Assembly: GCF_044324785.1 (NCBI RefSeq)
Contig: NZ_CP172127.1
DNA from: Escherichia coli
GTDB taxonomy: Bacteria > Pseudomonadota > Gammaproteobacteria > Enterobacterales > Enterobacteriaceae
Reading direction: 5' to 3' (one strand)
DNA length: 64,000 nt
The notes under the pieces were generated by a model. That model worked only from the letters and a program-made list of their open reading frames with translations, was not told the DNA's origin and did no database searches. The translations under genes and the position numbers were made by a program. Numbering within the stretch: position 1 is the stretch's first letter; every line of letters starts with the position of its first letter. Positions 48,580-56,286 of the stretch are shown in pieces.

Positions 48580-49498
48580 TACGTTATTAACGTTACGCGA
48601 CGTCCATATCAATTTCCCGGCCCGAAAAAACTGGCTTGGTAAAACTACGGAACATGTTCATGCCATCAATGGTATTGATTTACAGATCCGTCGTGGTGAA
48701 ACCTTAGGGATCGTCGGTGAGTCAGGCTGCGGCAAAAGCACCCTCGCACAGCTTTTAATGGGTATGCTGCAACCTAGCCACGGGCAGTACATCCGTTCAG
48801 GATCACAACGCATTATGCAGATGGTGTTTCAGGACCCGCTCTCTTCGCTCAATCCGCGCTTACCGGTGTGGCGCATCATCACAGAACCGCTCTGGATTGC
48901 TAAGCGTAGTAGTGAACAACAGCGGCGAGCGTTGGCAGAGGAGCTGGCTGTGCAGGTGGGTATTCGTCCGGAGTATCTCGACCGCTTGCCTCATGCGTTC
49001 TCTGGCGGGCAGCGGCAACGTATCGCCATTGCCAGAGCACTCTCTTCGCAGCCTGACGTGATTGTGCTTGATGAGCCAACCTCGGCGCTGGATATCTCCG
49101 TGCAGGCGCAGATCCTCAATTTACTGGTAACGCTACAGGAAAATCGCGAGCTGACTTATGTGCTGATTTCACACAATGTCTCGGTGATACGTCATGTGAG
49201 CGATCGGGTGGCGGTGATGTATCTCGGGCAGATTGTGGAACTAGGAGACGCGCAACAGGTGCTAACGGCTCCGGCACATCCGTACACCCGATTATTGCTG
49301 GACTCCCTCCCCGCCATTGATAAACCGCTGGAGGAAGAATGGGCATTACGTAAAACGGATCTACCAGGAAACCGTACGTTGCCACAAGGCTGTTTTTTCC
49401 GCGAACGCTGCCCTCTGGCAACCCACGGATGTGAAGTCCGGCAATCATTAGCAATAAGGGAGGACGGACGTGAGATCCGGTGCTGGCGGGCGCTGTAG
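48572..49498 (+). CDS. ddpF: D,D-dipeptide ABC transporter ATPase DdpF
   Basis: Walker A GESGCGKST, signature FSGGQRQR; ORF opens at 48518 inside ddpD; GTG at 48572 gives the 308-aa product (VSDTLLTLRDVHINF...) I recall for DdpF. Confidence 0.85.
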   Translation: MSDTLLTLRDVHINFPARKNWLGKTTEHVHAINGIDLQIRRGETLGIVGESGCGKSTLAQLLMGMLQPSHGQYIRSGSQRIMQMVFQDPLSSLNPRLPVWRIITEPLWIAKRSSEQQRRALAEELAVQVGIRPEYLDRLPHAFSGGQRQRIAIARALSSQPDVIVLDEPTSALDISVQAQILNLLVTLQENRELTYVLISHNVSVIRHVSDRVAVMYLGQIVELGDAQQVLTAPAHPYTRLLLDSLPAIDKPLEEEWALRKTDLPGNRTLPQGCFFRERCPLATHGCEVRQSLAIREDGREIRCWRAL

Positions 49499-49513
49499 GA
49501 CGCGGCATCCGGC
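49495..49513. repeat. REP-like motif GTAGGACGCGGCATCCGGC at the ddpF-side boundary of the inserted block
   Basis: Overlaps the ddpF stop codon; resembles one arm of an E. coli REP unit; its 12-mer GCGGCATCCGGC recurs (one mismatch) in the palindrome at 56287-56308. Confidence 0.45.
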
Positions 49514-49534
49514 TATTGCATGTCTGCGGAAACG

Positions 49535-50425
49535 TTATGCGTCATAGGTTTTTTTTAACGTTTCCATCAACGCCTGCGCCGCAGTAGAAAGCTTATGGTG
49601 TGACGAACGCAGTACGCCTACTCGTCGCTCAATCACTGGATTATCCAGTTCCAGACACACTGCGCCCAGTTCGCTCATCTGCCTGCGGCACAGCGCAGGC
49701 ACAGCGCTTCCTCCCAAACCGTTTGCCACCAGCCGCCCAACCGTAACCAGTTGATGGCTTTCCAGCGCCACTTCCAGTTGCGTTCCACTTTGTGCCAACT
49801 GCTCCTCCAGCATCAACCTGACGGCTGACGGTCGCTGGAGGGTGATAAAATCGAGCGTCAGCAAATCCCGCCAACTCACGCGTTGCCGATTTGCCAGTCG
49901 TGAATCGGCTGGAACAATAGCGACAAACCGATCCACGCCCAGTGGGGTAAAATGCACATGGCCGCAATAGTCAGGTTCAAAGGCAATACCCATCTCCACA
50001 CGCCCTTCGCTCACCATTTCGATCACCTGCTCATTCACCACATCGTGCACGGTGACATTAATCCCTGAATAACAATCGCGGAAGGTTTTCAGCACCGGAG
50101 GCAGAACGTTGGCTGCAAATGACGGCATCGCTGCCACCGAGACTTTGCCCCGCCTGAGCGTGAATCGCTGACGCATGGCCTCCTCAGTGTTATCCCAGTC
50201 AGCCAGCAAAGGCCGTGCCATCGACAATAGCGTTTCCCCCTCCTGGGTTAATGTCACTTTTCGCGTAGTACGCAGCAGTAAAGCGCCCCCTAAGGCATCT
50301 TCCAGTCCTTTAATGGCAAGACTTAGCGCAGGCTGCGACATATTCAGCCGTTCACTGGCATGGGCAAAGTTCAGAGTGTGAGCTACCGCTAAAAACGCGC
50401 GTAACTGTTTGATGCTCATTTTCAT
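49535..50425 (-). CDS. LysR-family transcriptional regulator, divergent from the catabolic operon
   Basis: 296-aa ORF with N-terminal LysR HTH (...LNMSQPALSLAIKGLE...) and substrate-binding domain; 141-bp AT-rich divergent intergenic region. Confidence 0.85.
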   Translation of the reverse strand: MKMSIKQLRAFLAVAHTLNFAHASERLNMSQPALSLAIKGLEDALGGALLLRTTRKVTLTQEGETLLSMARPLLADWDNTEEAMRQRFTLRRGKVSVAAMPSFAANVLPPVLKTFRDCYSGINVTVHDVVNEQVIEMVSEGRVEMGIAFEPDYCGHVHFTPLGVDRFVAIVPADSRLANRQRVSWRDLLTLDFITLQRPSAVRLMLEEQLAQSGTQLEVALESHQLVTVGRLVANGLGGSAVPALCRRQMSELGAVCLELDNPVIERRVGVLRSSHHKLSTAAQALMETLKKTYDA

Positions 50426-50566
50426 CTGGCACTCCGTTAACCTACTGAATACATTTAATTAACATTATATTGATAAATAATACAAATGAATGAGTCACAA
50501 ATTTAAAATTAACAAATCATTTTTTGCCCTTAATGATGTTGAAAAGGACAACTGGAGGGCAACTGT
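50426..50566. promoter_or_regulatory. Divergent promoter / operator region between the LysR gene and the CoA-transferase operon
   Basis: AT-rich 141-bp spacer with several T-N11-A-type dyads (e.g. around TTAATTAACATTA); layout typical of LysR-controlled operons; inferred. Confidence 0.4.
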
Positions 50567-51274
50567 ATGGCTGGGTTGGATAAACGGGTCGCTACGTATC
50601 ACGAGGCGCTTGAAGGACTTACCAATGAGATGACGATTCTGGCAGGAGGTTTTGGCCTGTGCGGCATCCCGGAGAATCTGATTGCTGAAGTTCGCCACCG
50701 TGGAGTAACCGGATTAACGGTGGTTTCCAATAACTGTGGCGTAGATGGTTTTGGACTGGGTGTACTACTGGAAAGCCGACAGATCCGTAAAGTCGTCGCT
50801 TCTTATGTTGGCGAGAATGCTTTGTTTGAAAAACAGGTGCTTAACGGCGAACTGGAGGCGATTCTCACACCACAAGGAACCCTGGCAGAACAACTGCGCG
50901 CAGGCGGCGCGGGTATCCCGGCGTTCTTTACTGCCACCGGTTACGGTACTCCCGTTGCCGAAGGGAAAGAAGTCCGCGAATTCAACGGTCGCCCGTACAT
51001 CATGGAACAGGCTATCACCGGTGATTTTGCCCTGGTCAAAGGCTGGAAAGCCGACTGGTACGGCAACGTGATTTATCGTCATACCGCGCAAAACTTCAAC
51101 CCACTGATGGCGGCTGCCGGAAAAATCACCGTGGTGGAAGTGGAAGAAATCGTGCCACCTGGTGAACTTGATCCTGCCGCTATCCATACCCCGGGGATTT
51201 TTGTTAATCGCGTCATTCAGGGGCAATTTGAAAAACGCATTGAACAACGCACCCTTAGCCGCAAAGGAGCCTGA
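50567..51274 (+). CDS. 3-oxoacid CoA-transferase subunit A (ScoA/AtoD-like)
   Basis: 235-aa ORF with family-I CoA-transferase alpha-subunit motif (...ASYVGEN...). Confidence 0.85.
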
Positions 51275-51276
51275 CC

Positions 51277-51933
51277 ATGTTAACCCGTGAACAAATGGCG
51301 ATGCGAGTCGCCCGCGAATTGCGCGATGGCTATTACGTCAATCTCGGCATTGGTATCCCGACCCTGGTGGCAAACTACATTCCTGACGGGATGGATGTGA
51401 TGTTGCAGTCAGAAAACGGTTTGCTGGGAATGGGCGCATTTCCTACGGAAGACGAACTGGACGCCGACATGATTAATGCCGGTAAACAAACCGTTACCGC
51501 GCGGAAAGGCGCGGCAATTTTCGATTCGGCGCAATCATTCGCCATGATCCGTGGCGGTCATGTGGATCTGACTGTACTTGGCGCATTTGAAGTGGATGTG
51601 AATGGCAACATTGCCTCATGGATGATCCCCGGCAAGATGGTTAAAGGCATGGGCGGTGCCATGGATCTGGTTGCCGGTGCCGAGAATATTATTGTGGTAA
51701 TGACCCACGCCTCCAAATCCGGCGAATCCAAACTGCTTCCTGACTGTACCCTTCCATTGACCGGCGCCGGATGCATCAAACGCGTCTTAACCGACCTTGC
51801 TCTGCTGGAAATTGCTGACGGAGCTTTCATTCTGCGCGAGCGCGCGCCGGGAATCAGCGTTGCGGAAATCATCGCCAAAACCGCCGGTAAGTTGTTTGTG
51901 CCGGAACATGTCCCGGAAATGCAATTCAACTGA
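51277..51933 (+). CDS. 3-oxoacid CoA-transferase subunit B (ScoB/AtoA-like)
   Basis: 218-aa ORF with catalytic-glutamate SENG motif (MLQSENGLLG); begins 2 nt after subunit A. Confidence 0.85.
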   Translation: MLTREQMAMRVARELRDGYYVNLGIGIPTLVANYIPDGMDVMLQSENGLLGMGAFPTEDELDADMINAGKQTVTARKGAAIFDSAQSFAMIRGGHVDLTVLGAFEVDVNGNIASWMIPGKMVKGMGGAMDLVAGAENIIVVMTHASKSGESKLLPDCTLPLTGAGCIKRVLTDLALLEIADGAFILRERAPGISVAEIIAKTAGKLFVPEHVPEMQFN

Positions 51934-51942
51934 GGAATCACC

Positions 51943-53148
51943 ATGCAGGACGTTGTTATTGTTGCCGCTACGCGCACACCGATTGGCTGTTTTCATGGCG
52001 CTCTCGCCTCACTTTCTGCGGTTGATCTCGGCGCTGCCACCATCCGTTCATTGCTGGAGAAAACAGCACTTGCAGCAGAACAGATCGACGAAGTGATTTT
52101 TGGTCAGGTCCTGACTGCCGGAAGCGGACAAAATCCGGCACGGCAATCGGCGCTCAAAGCCGGGTTAAGCCACGATACACCCGCCGTTACCATCAACCTG
52201 GTATGTGGTTCCGGTCTGAAAGCAGTACACCAGGCCGTACAGGCGATCCGTTGCGGTGATGCACAGATAATTATCGCAGGTGGCCAGGAAAGCATGAGTA
52301 ACGCGCCCTATTTTATTGATGGCGCACGGGCAGGTTTACGCCTCGGGCATACCAGCATGAAAGACAGCGTGGTGCATGACGGACTATGGGACGCTTTCAA
52401 TGATTACCACATGGGCATTACTGCAGAAAACCTGGCGCAAAAATATGCCATCAGTCGCGAGCGACAGGACACATTCGCGCTACGTTCTCAGCAAAAAGCC
52501 GCTGCCGCAATGGAAGCCGGGCGCTTTGCAGACGAAATTACTCCGGTCAGCGTACCACAAGGTAAAAAACCACCACGCAGGGTAAATACCGACGAACAAC
52601 CACGTTCCGGGACGCAACTGGAAAAACTAGCACAACTGAAACCGGCCTTTCTTCCGGGGGCGGGAAGCGTCACCGCAGGAAATGCTTCTTCCATCAATGA
52701 TGGTGCCGCCGCAGTCATGTTAATGCGCGCCAGCAAAGCTGCCGAACTTGGCCTCCCAGTGCTGGCTCGGGTGGCTGGTTATGCCGTTTCTGGCGTCGAT
52801 CCTGCCTTTATGGGCATTGGTCCGGTCGCCGCTACCCGCGAATGTCTTAAGCGTTGCGGATGGACGCTGGAAGATATTGATCTTATTGAAGCCAACGAGG
52901 CTTTCGCAGCGCAGGCGCTGGCCGTTGGCGACGAACTGAACTGGGATTGCGACAAAGTGAATGTTAACGGCGGCGCAATCGCACTTGGGCATCCTATTGG
53001 CGCTTCCGGTTGCCGCATTCTGGTCACTCTCATTTATGAAATGGCGCGACGTAATGCGCAAAAAGGGCTGGCGACGCTGTGCGTCGGTGGCGGTCAGGGC
53101 GTGGCGCTGACACTGGAAAGAACCACAGGAGAACACCATGCAAACTGA
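51943..53148 (+). CDS. Acetyl-CoA C-acetyltransferase (thiolase II, AtoB-like)
   Basis: 401-aa ORF with thiolase active-site regions ([32 protein letters not shown]). Confidence 0.88.
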
Positions 53149-54061
53149 ACAATTTGCGGTACTGGGCGCCGGATTGATGGGCGTGGGGATTGCCACTCAT
53201 TTCGCCCGCTTTGGTCATGATATCTGGCTGTACGATACCGAGCAGAGCCGGATTGCAGAAATCCACGTAGTTGCAGGCGGAATTCTTGATGAGCTGATTA
53301 GCTGCGAACAGTTTACTGCCCCGGAAAAAGAGAATGTGCTTAAACGTCTGCACGGCACGACTTCTCTTGCAGACATCGCCGACTCGCAACTACTGATTGA
53401 GGCGATCCCGGAGCGACTTGAACTAAAACACGCATTATATACCGAGCTTGAAACGCTTATTTCTCCTGAGGCCATTGTCGCCAGCAATACCAGCGGTCTG
53501 CCGCCCGATGATCTGGCCGCGAAGATGCGCTACCCGCAACGACTGCTGATCGCCCATTTCTGGCATCCGCCGCACTTCATTCCACTTGTGGAGATTATCC
53601 CCGGCAGCGTTACCGAGCCAAAGCATTTGCACTGGCTGCAACACTTGCTTGTGTCACTGCAACTGGAAGCAGTGTTGCTGGATCGCGCTGCGCCAGGATT
53701 TGTCGGCAACCGTCTGCAATTTGCACTGTTGCGTGAAGCCCTGCATATCGTAAAAAGCGGCATCGCCAGTGCAGAAGTGGTGGATCAGGTGATGCGCGCC
53801 TCGCTTGGGCGACGTTATGCCATGGTCGGCCCGCTGGAGGCCGCCGACATGACCGGACTTTCGACGGTGCAGGATATTTGTCGCCATCTGCTCCCTGAAC
53901 TAGCGACTGGCAGCGACATGATGTCATTAGTTGCCGAAAAAGTGGAACGTGGAGACATCGGCGTACGTAGCGGTCAGGGATTTTACTGCTGGGATGAATC
54001 GCGGAAGCAGTACATCCAGCAGCGTCGGGAACATCAACTTCGCTTCGCCTTTAAAACATAA
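53138..54061 (+). CDS. 3-hydroxyacyl-CoA dehydrogenase family protein (Rossmann NAD-binding), possibly a free 3-hydroxyacid dehydrogenase
   Basis: 307-aa ORF with GAGLMGVG dinucleotide fold and [13 protein letters not shown] in place of the usual Hbd HFFNPVPVMKLVE; start overlaps the thiolase stop by 11 nt. Confidence 0.75.
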
Positions 54062-54106
54062 CTTCTCTCGCTGTACCCACTATAACAACGATATTGAGGA
54101 GTCCCG

Positions 54107-55498
54107 ATGAGTGTATTAATCGCCCTTGCCGCGCTTGGGCTGCTAATGCTGGCAGCCTATCGCGGATACAGCGTTATCCTTTTTGCCCCCATCGCAGCAT
54201 TAGGCGCTGTTCTTGTCACCGATCCGGGGGCCGTTGGCCCAGCATTTACCGGCCTGTTCATGGAAAAAATGGTCGGCTTCGTGAAATTGTACTTCCCGGT
54301 GTTTCTGCTCGGGGCCGTGTTCGGAAAACTGATTGAACTTTCAGGATTTTCTCGTTCGATTGTCGCTGCTGCAATCAACATTCTCGGCCGGCGGCATGCG
54401 ATTCCGGTGATTGTGCTGGTATGTGCATTACTCACCTATGGCGGAGTGTCGCTGTTTGTGGTGGCATTTGCCGTTTATCCGTTCGCGGCTGAATTGTTCC
54501 GCCAGAGTAATATCCCCAAACGGCTTATACCGGCAACGGTGGCCCTCGGAGCATTCTCTTTTACTATGGACGCTCTGCCCGGCACGCCACAAATTCAGAA
54601 CATTATTCCCACCAGTTTCTTTGGCACCAACGCCTGGGCCGCGCCGTGGCTGGGGCTTATTGGTTCACTGTTTATCATTGCCGTCGGGCTTATCTATCTG
54701 GAACGGCAGCGTCGTAAAGCACAGGCAAAAAATGAAAGTTACGGCACAGAGTTACTTAATGAACCTGAAACGCCGGACAACATCAATTTACCGAACCCAC
54801 TCATTGCGATTTCACCATTGATTCTGGTGGGGCTGTTGAACTTGTTGTTTACCTGGTGGATCCCTGTTTGGTACGGTGCGAGCCACCAACTGGAGTTGCC
54901 GGGACTTACTGCCCCGATTACCACAGATGTCGCCAAAATCACCGCAATCTGGGCCGTCGAAGCTGCGCTCATTGCCGGAATTTTGCTGGTAGTGATTTTT
55001 GGATATCGCAATATTCATGGAAGACTGGCAGAAGGAAGCCGTACAGCGGTAGGCGGCGCAATTCTGGCTGCGATGAACACCGCCTCAGAATATGGCTTCG
55101 GTGCGGTTATCGCCGCCCTACCCGGTTTTCTGGTGCTCTCAAAGGCGCTGGCCGCCATTCCTGATCCATTACTCAACGAAGCCATCAGCATCACCACACT
55201 TGCCGGAATTACCGGTTCAGCGTCCGGCGGGATGAGTATTGCTCTTGCGGCTATGTCCGACACTTTTATTGCCGCTGCGCACGCTGCCAATATTCCACTG
55301 GAAGTTTTTCACCGCGTGGCATCTATGGCCAGTGGCGGCATGGATACATTGCCCCATAACGGCGCTGTGATCACCCTGCTGGCAATTACTGGGCTGAGTC
55401 ACCGTCAGGCTTACGGCGGCATCTTCGCAATTACGATCATTAAAAGTCTGGCCGTGCTGTTTATCATCGGCGTGTACTACACCACCGGCATTGTCTAA
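54107..55498 (+). CDS. Polytopic membrane permease (GntP-like; candidate 3-hydroxybutyrate/short-chain acid transporter)
   Basis: 463-aa very hydrophobic ORF with at least 10 predicted TM segments and a central charged loop (...LERQRRKAQAKNESYG...); family assignment from memory only. Confidence 0.6.
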   Translation: MSVLIALAALGLLMLAAYRGYSVILFAPIAALGAVLVTDPGAVGPAFTGLFMEKMVGFVKLYFPVFLLGAVFGKLIELSGFSRSIVAAAINILGRRHAIPVIVLVCALLTYGGVSLFVVAFAVYPFAAELFRQSNIPKRLIPATVALGAFSFTMDALPGTPQIQNIIPTSFFGTNAWAAPWLGLIGSLFIIAVGLIYLERQRRKAQAKNESYGTELLNEPETPDNINLPNPLIAISPLILVGLLNLLFTWWIPVWYGASHQLELPGLTAPITTDVAKITAIWAVEAALIAGILLVVIFGYRNIHGRLAEGSRTAVGGAILAAMNTASEYGFGAVIAALPGFLVLSKALAAIPDPLLNEAISITTLAGITGSASGGMSIALAAMSDTFIAAAHAANIPLEVFHRVASMASGGMDTLPHNGAVITLLAITGLSHRQAYGGIFAITIIKSLAVLFIIGVYYTTGIV

Positions 55499-55509
55499 GG
55501 AAAATCATC

Positions 55510-56280
55510 ATGAATTTACAAGGTAAAACTGCGCTGGTGACGGGCTCCACCAGCGGTATCGGACTCGGTATTGCTCAGACACTGGCAAACGCTGGCGCGC
55601 AAGTGATCCTCAACGGCTTCGGTGATGTTGACGCGGCAATCAATGCGGTTTCTCGTATGGGTAAAACGCCTGGCTATCATGAGGCAGACCTCAGCGATGA
55701 ATCGCAAATTATCAACATGATGGCCTACGCACGGCGGGAATTTGGCGGTGTGGACATTCTGGTGAATAACGCAGGGATCCAGTATGTCTCCCCGGTTGAA
55801 TCTTTCCCTGTAGAAAAATGGAACGCCATTATCGCTATCAATCTCTCTTCTGTCTTTCACACCACGCGTCTGGCACTGCCAGAAATGCGCACTCGTAACT
55901 GGGGTCGGATCATTAACATTGCCTCTGTGCATGGGCTGGTAGCGTCGAAAGACAAATCAGCTTATGTTGCGGCAAAACATGGCGTGGTGGGACTCACAAA
56001 GACCATTGCTCTGGAAACTGCGCAGACGGGTATTACCTGCAACGCGCTCTGCCCTGGCTGGGTGCTGACGCCGCTGGTACAACAGCAGATTGATAAGCGC
56101 ATTGCGCAAGGCGAAGATGCGGAAAGCGCGCGTGACGCCTTACTGGCAGAAAAACAGCCTTCTCGTGAATTTGTGACTCCGCAACAACTGGGTGAACTGG
56201 CGCTGTTTCTCTGTTCGGATGCGGCAGCACAAGTGCGTGGGGTGGCGTGGAATATGGATGGCGGTTGGGTAGCGCAGTAA
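55510..56280 (+). CDS. Short-chain dehydrogenase/reductase, 3-hydroxybutyrate dehydrogenase (BdhA)-like
   Basis: 256-aa ORF with SDR cofactor motif TGSTSGIG, NNAG and catalytic Y-x3-K (YVAAK); begins 11 nt after the permease. Confidence 0.8.
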   Translation: MNLQGKTALVTGSTSGIGLGIAQTLANAGAQVILNGFGDVDAAINAVSRMGKTPGYHEADLSDESQIINMMAYARREFGGVDILVNNAGIQYVSPVESFPVEKWNAIIAINLSSVFHTTRLALPEMRTRNWGRIINIASVHGLVASKDKSAYVAAKHGVVGLTKTIALETAQTGITCNALCPGWVLTPLVQQQIDKRIAQGEDAESARDALLAEKQPSREFVTPQQLGELALFLCSDAAAQVRGVAWNMDGGWVAQ

Positions 56281-56286
56281 GTGTTC

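Follow-up and report, generated by a model that had tools for sequence, protein, structure and literature searches.

Ketone bodies are host metabolites; the fate of (S)-3-hydroxybutyrate is poorly understood. Enzymes of the 3-hydroxyacyl-CoA dehydrogenase (HAD) family are specific for L/(S)-3-hydroxy substrates, and L-3-hydroxybutyrate is also a substrate of L-gulonate 3-dehydrogenase (EC 1.1.1.45). A HAD-family (S)-3-hydroxybutyrate dehydrogenase (3SHBDH) was reportedly characterised from Desulfotomaculum ruminis in 2022, and the ketone-body cluster of Pseudomonas aeruginosa is said, in reports of 2009 and 2015, to have the composition dhcR-dhcAB-atoB ... bdhA-PA2004-hbcR (PA1998-PA2005); to our knowledge, the latter has no HAD-type second dehydrogenase. 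Here we consider a 64-kb stretch of the Escherichia coli chromosome (64,000 nt; RefSeq assembly GCF_044324785.1, contig NZ_CP172127.1; hereinafter, the window), in which an accessory island encodes a 307-aa HAD-family protein together with a short-chain dehydrogenase/reductase (SDR). The 307-aa protein is most likely a NAD-dependent (S)-3-hydroxybutyrate dehydrogenase complementing the (R)-specific enzyme BdhA.

The first-pass annotation of this DNA had pointed to two different dehydrogenases in one operon, and both open reading frames (ORFs) were confirmed (53138-54061 and 55510-56280, both on the plus strand). The span assigned to the operon, 53138-56280, includes both of them, but a 463-aa permease within it had been left unmentioned, and the operon itself starts 2.6 kb upstream, at 50567. 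The gene order of the island is a divergent LysR gene, the genes for CoA-transferase subunits A and B, thiolase, the 307-aa HAD-type protein, the permease and bdhA; according to the ORFs, NCBIfam matches and PGAP annotation, the ketone-body set is contiguous on one strand, with the divergent regulator. The island looks like a complete route for the use of 3-hydroxybutyrate. Neither crotonase nor acyl-CoA dehydrogenase genes, nor uronate or sugar-acid genes, are found within the island by ORFs and PGAP annotation, and it contains no gene for a beta-keto-acid cleavage enzyme (BKACE). The features central to the argument are listed here, with positions in the window.

49499..56292, no strand: accessory island of ~6.8 kb between ddpF and osmC, a precise insertion relative to K-12
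53138..54061, plus strand: 307-aa HAD-family dehydrogenase of the free-acid branch, the proposed NAD-dependent (S)-3-hydroxybutyrate dehydrogenase
53555..53593, plus strand: catalytic His140-Glu152 loop (residues 140-152), aligned to the His-Glu dyad of Hbd and lambda-crystallin
53807..53821, plus strand: insertion in the C-terminal domain, G224-R-R-Y-A228 with Arg226, a segment deleted in Hbd, PaaH and FadB
55510..56280, plus strand: 256-aa SDR, (R)-3-hydroxybutyrate dehydrogenase BdhA by both curated 3-hydroxybutyrate dehydrogenase models, which it passes

The 307-aa frame is a genuine gene rather than a chance one, because its product belongs to a 99%-identity cluster with 434 member sequences, contains both Pfam domains of the family (3HCDH_N, PF02737, E = 3.8e-46, residues 6-180; 3HCDH, PF00725, E = 1.4e-18, residues 187-284), and because, among 5426 complete E. 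coli genomes, 230 retain the block encoding it with at least 95% identity. The block as such was observed in 231 of these genomes (~4%), being chromosomal in all of them.

The public names of the protein are in conflict. It is a '3-hydroxybutyryl-CoA dehydrogenase' in JGI, an 'L-gulonate 3-dehydrogenase' by the UniProt rules (the label also carried in UniRef and AFDB) and a 'HAD family protein' in NCBI, and among its UniProt relatives, many are named 3-hydroxybutyryl-CoA dehydrogenase and many L-gulonate 3-dehydrogenase. None of the 19 matching NCBIfam models reaches its cut-off. The best scores are those of FHMPC_DH (NF042925, 220 bits vs. the cut-off of 500) and of several generic models, likewise below their cut-offs, with further values for the CoA-type models Hbd (PRK05808, 181 vs. 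408), PRK07530 (151 vs. 420), PaaH (166 vs. 669) and FadB (140 vs. 870), and for the carnitine dehydrogenase models NF005716 (142 vs. 592) and NF005471 (112 vs. 414). The ranking of PDB sequences is led by FHMPC dehydrogenase (4om8, E = 8e-49), and then come clostridial Hbd (~1e-39) and lambda-crystallins (~1e-32).

To place the protein, we aligned it with references of two kinds: 4om8, 4kug, 3ado, 3f3s and 4dyd, taken from HMMER alignments, and three proteins from annotated records, that is, the Rhizobium carnitine 3-dehydrogenase encoded beside a BKACE gene, E. coli PaaH and E. coli FadB. The catalytic residues of Hbd and lambda-crystallin have their counterparts in Ser119, His140, Glu152 and Asn191, and the GxGxxG motif is present as G10-A-G-L-M-G15. 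The loop between the catalytic His and Glu has the form HFW(H/N)PPHxIPLVE, the part NPP[H/Y]xIPLVE being common to lambda-crystallin and FHMPC dehydrogenase, whereas the CoA-type loop is NPxPVMxLVE; carnitine dehydrogenase has NPVY instead of NPP and retains only the xxPLVE part. Two insertions, one residue before PGFVGNR and three residues in the C-terminal domain, are shared by the 307-aa protein, lambda-crystallin, FHMPC dehydrogenase and carnitine dehydrogenase, so that GRRYAMVGP stands in the place of the short G-x-x-H-P-M-G-P loop of the CoA-type enzymes. Hbd, PaaH and FadB have neither the NPP[H/Y]xIPLVE loop nor the insertions.

The longer insertion contains Arg226, which aligns to the Arg of GMRY in lambda-crystallin (3ado, 3f3s), to the Arg of GLRW in carnitine dehydrogenase and to the Lys of GYKI in FHMPC dehydrogenase. 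It is invariant, as are the catalytic residues, in an alignment of 69 sequences going down to 34% identity to the query. Since, in the substrates of the three characterised free-acid enzymes, a carboxylate takes the place of the thioester met by CoA enzymes, Arg226 may bind this carboxylate. In Hbd, lysines contact the ribose and the 3'-phosphate of CoA (PMC11476959); the residues of the 307-aa protein aligned to these lysines are Glu52, Cys56 and Gln58.

The motif HFWHPPHF had been singled out as atypical, and it is indeed present within residues 140-152; its His143, however, is not diagnostic. In Citrobacter this residue alternates with Asn between species (Asn in Citrobacter werkmanii and C. 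youngae ATCC 29220), and His recurs in Sporosarcina; we therefore rejected it as a specificity determinant. The general motif of the large subfamily is HFWNPPH, and the His of HFWH is a trivial polymorphism. In one representative, P0141 (43% identical), Asn stands in place of the catalytic His140 (ANWWNPAH), and this protein, provided that its sequence is correct, would be catalytically altered. As for the coenzyme, Asp33 is a NAD-type residue, which binds the NAD ribose, and is present in the proteobacterial members. At this position (query residues 30-34), members from Firmicutes and Negativicutes (L068, L069, L072, L073, L074, L078, L080, L081, L084-L092) have Gly-Arg, Gly-Leu or Gly-Ile, which suggests that these clade members may use NADP(H).

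In a neighbour-joining tree of 42 sequences (100 bootstraps), the CoA-type references are separated from a group comprising FHMPC dehydrogenase, carnitine dehydrogenase, lambda-crystallin and the query-type clade, with the support of 81%, or of 74% if diketoreductase is counted on the CoA side. Lambda-crystallin and carnitine dehydrogenase form a group of their own (88%), with the query clade outside; the proteobacterial clade holding the query has the support of 93%. An AlphaFold2 model of the protein, built on the 69-sequence alignment (mean pLDDT 95.2), was compared with PDB structures by Foldseek, with the following TM-scores and root-mean-square deviations (rmsd).

4om8 (FHMPC dehydrogenase): TM 0.89, rmsd 3.2 Å
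3f3s and 3ado (lambda-crystallins): TM 0.82-0.86, rmsd 3.3-3.8 Å
all 40-odd CoA-type chains (Hbd, FadB2, PaaH, PaaH1, human HADH, trifunctional enzymes): TM 0.68-0.78, rmsd ~8-10 Å

Over 4om8, 3ado and 3f3s chain A, the TM-score ranges from 0.85 to 0.89 and the rmsd from 3.2 to 3.4 Å. As three independent computations (the shared loop and insertions, the tree and the predicted fold) all agree, the 307-aa protein belongs to the non-CoA, or free-acid, branch of the HAD family. This bears out the suggestion of the first-pass annotation that it resembles the branch of lambda-crystallin, L-gulonate 3-dehydrogenase and L-carnitine dehydrogenase, with the proviso that carnitine dehydrogenase itself has NPVY. 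The profile and phylogenetic comparison that had been proposed there as a check was thus carried out, and no clustering with CoA-specific Hbd was observed by sequence, tree or fold.

The partner enzyme had been described as a BdhA-like SDR, and it passes the curated BdhA cut-offs (NF009093, 371 bits vs. 258; TIGR01963 PHB_DH, 343.5 vs. 307). It carries Q91, S139, H141, K149, Y152 and K156, that is, the Ser-Tyr-Lys triad and the Gln/His/Lys carboxylate-binding pattern, with a residue spacing that we take to agree with that of Pseudomonas fragi HBDH. Judged by these scores and residues, the 256-aa SDR is a bona fide BdhA.

For the genomic context elsewhere, we scanned, one genome per species, 80 loci encoding homologues with 36-92% identity to the 307-aa protein, using the seven island proteins as probes. 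In 41 of these loci, as well as in Klebsiella (L002) and in a metagenomic contig (L007), genes for the permease, BdhA and/or CoA-transferase were found within 8 kb, the 'BdhA' neighbour in several Bacilli being an unverified SDR 31-40% identical to BdhA. The relatives whose genes adjoin bdhA, that for the same permease and/or those for acetoacetate CoA-transferase have 37-82% identity and come from Enterobacterales, Pseudomonas, Halotalea, Paraburkholderia, Bacilli and Negativicutes. The linkage to acetoacetate and 3-hydroxybutyrate genes hence spans the whole clade and several phyla.

The composition of these loci varies. Six other genera have the identical seven-gene layout: Citrobacter (11 loci), Raoultella, Serratia, Pluralibacter, Azomonas and Klebsiella, the copy in Klebsiella pneumoniae adjoining the bud operon. 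In Pseudomonas oryzihabitans and Halotalea the set is rearranged, the HAD-type gene being accompanied by genes for a PAS-domain sigma-54 activator, the permease, BdhA, transferase A/B and thiolase. Five Paraburkholderia species lack the transferase and thiolase genes of this set and have no more than the HAD-type, activator, permease and bdhA genes. In Kurthia, the HAD-type gene is followed by a gene whose product passes the BdhA cut-offs, a PAS regulator and transferase A/B; in Sporosarcina, it is downstream of transferase A/B; in Megasphaera, it is flanked by genes for an AtoE-like transporter, LysR, a permease of the same type and a fused CoA-transferase of the YdiF/FadX type. The HAD-type gene is accompanied by the permease alone in a Burkholderiaceae metagenome-assembled genome (MAG), a Massilia MAG and the metagenomic contig (L007, L060, L061), where the contig encodes a 49%-identical HAD homologue and then a permease 67% identical to that of E. 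coli. Since some loci thus pair the HAD-type gene with the permease alone, the enzyme presumably acts on an imported free acid. The cluster of Salsuginibacillus contains thiolase, a canonical Hbd (HYFYPVPVMSLVE, GANHKMGP) and a YdiF-type transferase and, separately, a HAD-type gene beside an SDR gene; therefore, the two HAD types are not redundant.

Several further loci deserve mention. In Pluralibacter gergoviae (L075) the HAD-type gene is matched in its C-terminal half alone, and in Citrobacter amalonaticus (L062) the matches to transferase and thiolase are broken into fragments and that to BdhA has just 58% identity; these defects could reflect pseudogenisation or assembly errors. The gene neighbourhoods of two representatives, P0129 and P0131, were uninformative. 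On the plasmid of Caballeronia sp. SBC1 (L003:11891-15191), a 51%-identical homologue is encoded in the vicinity of genes for an ABC transporter of the choline/betaine type and an AraC regulator resembling GbdR, which hints at a quaternary-amine hydroxy acid as the substrate in that lineage. An AFDB50 match, A0A956WJB3 (484 aa, 'Flavin reductase'), looks like a fusion of a HAD-type protein with a flavin reductase.

The remaining features of the island and its right border are as follows.

49535..50425, minus strand: LysR-family transcriptional regulator; LysR-family NCBIfam matches, none of them above an equivalog cut-off, and an agreeing PGAP name
50426..50566, no strand: AT-rich control region between the divergent genes; a promoter-like site (TTAACA-17-AATGAT) is at 50509-50537 on the plus strand
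50567..51274, plus strand: 3-oxoacid CoA-transferase subunit A (TIGR02429 pcaI_scoA_fam, 244.8 bits vs. the cut-off of 128.5)
51277..51933, plus strand: 3-oxoacid CoA-transferase subunit B (TIGR02428 pcaJ_scoB_fam, 327 bits vs. 243.6), with the SENG motif in the translation
51943..53148, plus strand: acetyl-CoA C-acetyltransferase, thiolase (TIGR01930, 501 bits vs. 240.6)
54107..55498, plus strand: 463-aa permease (ORF; GntP family by PGAP), the proposed 3-hydroxybutyrate importer
56287..56308, no strand: 22-nt perfect palindrome, GCCGGATGACGCGTCATCCGGC, between the convergent bdhA and osmC

The LysR gene is retained in the same position in 16 loci, at 65-97% identity. In a scan for promoters and terminators, sites were no more numerous than in shuffled sequence, and the promoter-like site is suggestive by its position only. 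No Pfam or NCBIfam model matches the permease, whatever the threshold; even so, it is among the most conserved genes of the system (70-99% identity across Proteobacteria, 48-50% in Negativicutes). It is always near bdhA and/or the HAD-type gene, being co-located with one or both of them in 32 of the 80 scanned loci. The thiolase scores 678 bits with NF004206, whose cut-off is 688.

The gene for the 307-aa protein starts at 53138, 11 nt before the thiolase end at 53148, and has AGGAG 9 nt upstream of its ATG. This overlap had been taken to suggest translational coupling. The overlap is real, being retained in E. coli and in each of the ten Citrobacter loci that were examined, and coupling is plausible locally, but it is not a property of the whole system, as the overlap is kept only in Escherichia and Citrobacter. 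It results from ~8 extra C-terminal residues of the thiolase in these two genera (...TTGEHHAN; 53125-53148), compared to typical thiolases of 392-393 aa. The thiolases of Klebsiella (L002), Raoultella, Serratia and Azomonas are shorter, with gaps of 11-46 nt before the HAD-type gene.

The flanks of the island in the window carry ddpBCDF, osmC, bdm, sra, maeA, adhP and fdnIH. By BLASTN comparison of the ddpF-osmC region, the homology to K-12 stops at 49498, the stop codon of ddpF, and restarts at 56293, the island replacing 33 bp and being missing from K-12 at this locus. No integrase, insertion sequence element or direct repeats were found in the flanks. The right-hand junction (56293) falls within the 22-nt palindrome, whose right half belongs to the K-12-homologous flank; as the palindrome has no T-run, it was not called as a terminator.

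Given this gene set, we lean towards viewing the island as a self-contained catabolic operon for 3-hydroxybutyrate and acetoacetate, with the HAD-type enzyme taking the (S) form and BdhA the (R) form. Free 3-hydroxybutyrate would be imported by the permease. The (R)/D enantiomer would then be oxidised to acetoacetate by BdhA, and the (S)/L free acid would be converted to the same product by the 307-aa HAD-fold enzyme with NAD+, this enzyme being assigned to the (S) form because of the L/(S) specificity of its family. Catalysis is expected to involve Ser119, His140, Glu152 and Asn191, with Arg226 holding the carboxylate. The two-subunit 3-oxoacid CoA-transferase would activate acetoacetate to acetoacetyl-CoA, to be cleaved by the thiolase to two molecules of acetyl-CoA, and expression of the operon would presumably be switched on by the divergent LysR protein. 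The actual substrate, the enantiomer taken, what Arg226 does and how the operon is regulated are all inferred. The proposal of the first-pass annotation that the operon handles both enantiomers of 3-hydroxybutyrate fits the recurrent cross-phylum pairing with bdhA, the permease or CoA-transferase, where the substrate and stereochemistry again are predictions.

Several observations weigh against this assignment. The bootstrap support of the split between CoA-type and free-acid enzymes is moderate and comes from neighbour joining only. The catalytic residues are identical to those of the CoA-type enzymes, and hence the chemistry alone does not discriminate; the closest characterised relative, FHMPC dehydrogenase (~30-36% identity), has a very different substrate. 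The position of the HAD-type gene directly after the thiolase gene, with the overlap in Escherichia and Citrobacter, also suits consecutive steps at the CoA level, and family-I CoA-transferases could in principle activate 3-hydroxybutyrate. In 21 Caballeronia and Paraburkholderia loci (e.g. L030:8920-9552, L044:8973-9572), homologues at ~50% identity are next to a gene for a flavin-reductase-like protein (~200 aa, Pfam PF01613), with no ketone-body genes. In a full-text literature search, no paper was found on the island or on a HAD-family (S)-3-hydroxybutyrate dehydrogenase, and no enzyme or growth data for any clade member.

Alternatively, the 307-aa protein might be a true (S)-3-hydroxybutyryl-CoA dehydrogenase. 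The transferase would then activate L-3-hydroxybutyrate, the enzyme would produce acetoacetyl-CoA, and the thiolase would cleave it, so that both enantiomers would still be used, the L branch at the CoA level. The Pfam domains with all four catalytic residues, the names given to relatives in JGI and in many UniProt entries, the place immediately after the thiolase with the conserved 11-nt overlap, and the frequency of CoA-transferase genes among the neighbours are all consistent with this possibility. However, the NPxPVMxLVE and short G-x-x-H-P-M-G-P loops are replaced by the free-acid insertions with a basic residue, the basic residues contacting the CoA phosphates are missing, and the protein reaches the cut-off of none of the Hbd, PaaH and FadB models; the tree separates it from the CoA-type references, and the predicted model deviates from the latter by ~8 Å, compared to 3.2 Å for the best free-acid match. 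Moreover, several lineages have the HAD-type gene with the permease only, or with the permease and BdhA only, and a canonical Hbd co-exists with it in the Salsuginibacillus cluster. We thus consider oxidation at the CoA level unlikely.

The placement in the free-acid branch is also compatible with a dehydrogenase of some other free beta-hydroxy acid, recruited to the operon or travelling with it, the candidates being L-gulonate, L-carnitine, threonine isomers, 3-hydroxyvalerate and 3-hydroxyisobutyrate-like acids. The UniRef and AFDB name is in line with that, as are the ~50%-identical homologues encoded elsewhere beside a flavin reductase or, in Caballeronia SBC1, beside the choline-type ABC transporter and the GbdR-like regulator; enzymes of this branch are also said to be promiscuous for L-3-hydroxy acids. 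On the other hand, the carnitine dehydrogenase models score far below their cut-offs, there is no BKACE gene as beside the Rhizobium carnitine dehydrogenase, the group of lambda-crystallin and carnitine dehydrogenase (88%) excludes the query clade, and no sugar-acid genes are nearby, while all other island genes and the recurrent neighbours across phyla point to C4 ketone bodies. Another substrate is hence rather improbable in our view, and three specific identities were rejected: L-carnitine dehydrogenase (by the models, the tree and the lack of the BKACE gene present in the Rhizobium locus, L004), an L-gulonate 3-dehydrogenase orthologue (24-32% identity, lambda-crystallin grouping with carnitine dehydrogenase, no sugar-acid context) and FHMPC dehydrogenase (220 bits with NF042925 against the cut-off of 500, unrelated context). 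Finally, the main reaction of the enzyme could be the reduction of acetoacetate with NADH, producing (S)-3-hydroxybutyrate as a redox sink or an export product. The reaction is reportedly reversible in all family members, and the permease gene is adjacent; but the setting is catabolic (importer-type permease, CoA-transferase, thiolase, LysR activator, pairing with the catabolic BdhA), and the proteobacterial members have the NAD-type Asp33, making this direction highly improbable.

We return to the oxidation of free (S)-3-hydroxybutyrate as the preferred function. Taken more broadly, and with considerable doubt, the 307-aa protein might be the first recognisable member of a very large uncharacterised HFWNPPH/G-R-R subfamily of HAD enzymes oxidising free L-3-hydroxy acids, with the island serving the use of both ketone-body enantiomers in the gut. 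Under this tentative reading, the subfamily would comprise thousands of sequences from Proteobacteria, Firmicutes, Chloroflexi and archaeal plasmids, and the island would be found in ~4% of E. coli and in Citrobacter and Klebsiella; the trait could then be relevant to colonisation in ketosis or under supplementation with ketone esters. If the assignment is right, a widespread mis-annotation under CoA-ester, L-gulonate and generic HAD names would be corrected, and the PPH-IPLVE loop, the two insertions and Arg226 would serve as markers dividing free-acid from CoA-ester members of the family. It would also predict a strain-variable phenotype of E. coli, growth on racemic 3-hydroxybutyrate, K-12 having no island at the locus, and would mean a bacterial route for (S)-3-hydroxybutyrate in common gut Enterobacteriaceae, relevant to microbiome and metabolism research.

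Among the known enzymes, the CoA-type ones (clostridial Hbd, E. coli PaaH and the HAD domain of FadB) share with the 307-aa protein the two Pfam domains, the Ser-His-Glu-Asn set and ~28-33% identity. They differ in the NPxPVMxLVE loop, in having no insertions and no equivalent of Arg226, in the lysines at the CoA phosphates and in the fold (rmsd ~8 Å), and are usually encoded with crotonase and acyl-CoA dehydrogenase genes. Lambda-crystallin, or L-gulonate 3-dehydrogenase (EC 1.1.1.45; 3ado, 3f3s), acts on free L-3-hydroxy acids and is similar in NPP[Y/H]xIPLVE, in G-x-R-Y-A with Arg, in the one-residue insertion before GFVxNR and in the fold, but it is a eukaryotic enzyme of the uronate cycle with ~24-32% identity that groups with carnitine dehydrogenase (88%). 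FHMPC dehydrogenase of Mesorhizobium loti (4om8) is the best PDB match by both sequence and fold, with the loop HWSNPPHIIPMIE and Lys at the position of Arg226; its substrate, however, is a pyridine aldehyde of vitamin B6 degradation, and its genomic context is unrelated. L-carnitine dehydrogenase (the gene of Rhizobium leguminosarum pRlX3; CdhA of P. aeruginosa) also belongs to the free-acid branch and has xxPLVE and G-L-R-W with Arg at position 226, but it has NPVY and not NPP, Asp instead of Asn191, and its gene is always beside that of a BKACE.

Three apparent precedents were rejected. The structures 9jhe, 9jhy, 9jhz and 9ji0, considered as (S)-3-hydroxybutyrate dehydrogenase, are those of the CoA-type 3-hydroxybutyryl-CoA dehydrogenase of Faecalibacterium, a molecule name that entry 9w15 bears as well; the enzyme studied in a paper on carnitine in Citrobacter amalonaticus is FadJ; and the 'atypical L-threonate 3-dehydrogenase' is an SDR.

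A close functional parallel is 3SHBDH of D. ruminis and Clostridium pasteurianum, compared here by its reported properties. A database search with the Pelosinus homologue, aimed at the proteins of these two species, returned only relatives at least 67% identical with uninformative names. 3SHBDH reportedly has the HAD fold, converts free (S)-3-hydroxybutyrate to acetoacetate, the reaction proposed here for the 307-aa protein, and has an acetoacetate CoA-transferase as a partner; similarly, the relatives in Negativicutes and Bacilli adjoin YdiF-type or ScoAB-type transferases. Unlike the 307-aa enzyme, it is said to come from strict anaerobes and to use NAD(P)H, whereas the E. coli enzyme has the NAD-type Asp33, shows no more than ~40% identity to the Firmicutes clade and is encoded in an aerobic-style operon that also contains the genes for thiolase and the (R)-specific BdhA. 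Should 3SHBDH of D. ruminis lie outside the clade of the 307-aa protein, the HAD fold would have been recruited to the same reaction independently.

At the level of the operon, the P. aeruginosa cluster, as reported, is similar in having a divergent LysR gene, a two-subunit acetoacetate CoA-transferase, thiolase, BdhA and a permease gene next to bdhA, and the sigma-54 activator in the P. oryzihabitans, Halotalea and Paraburkholderia versions resembles what is reported of HbcR from that cluster. No new principle is involved, because each component has precedents, and the enterobacterial island and its clade appear to be uncharacterised.

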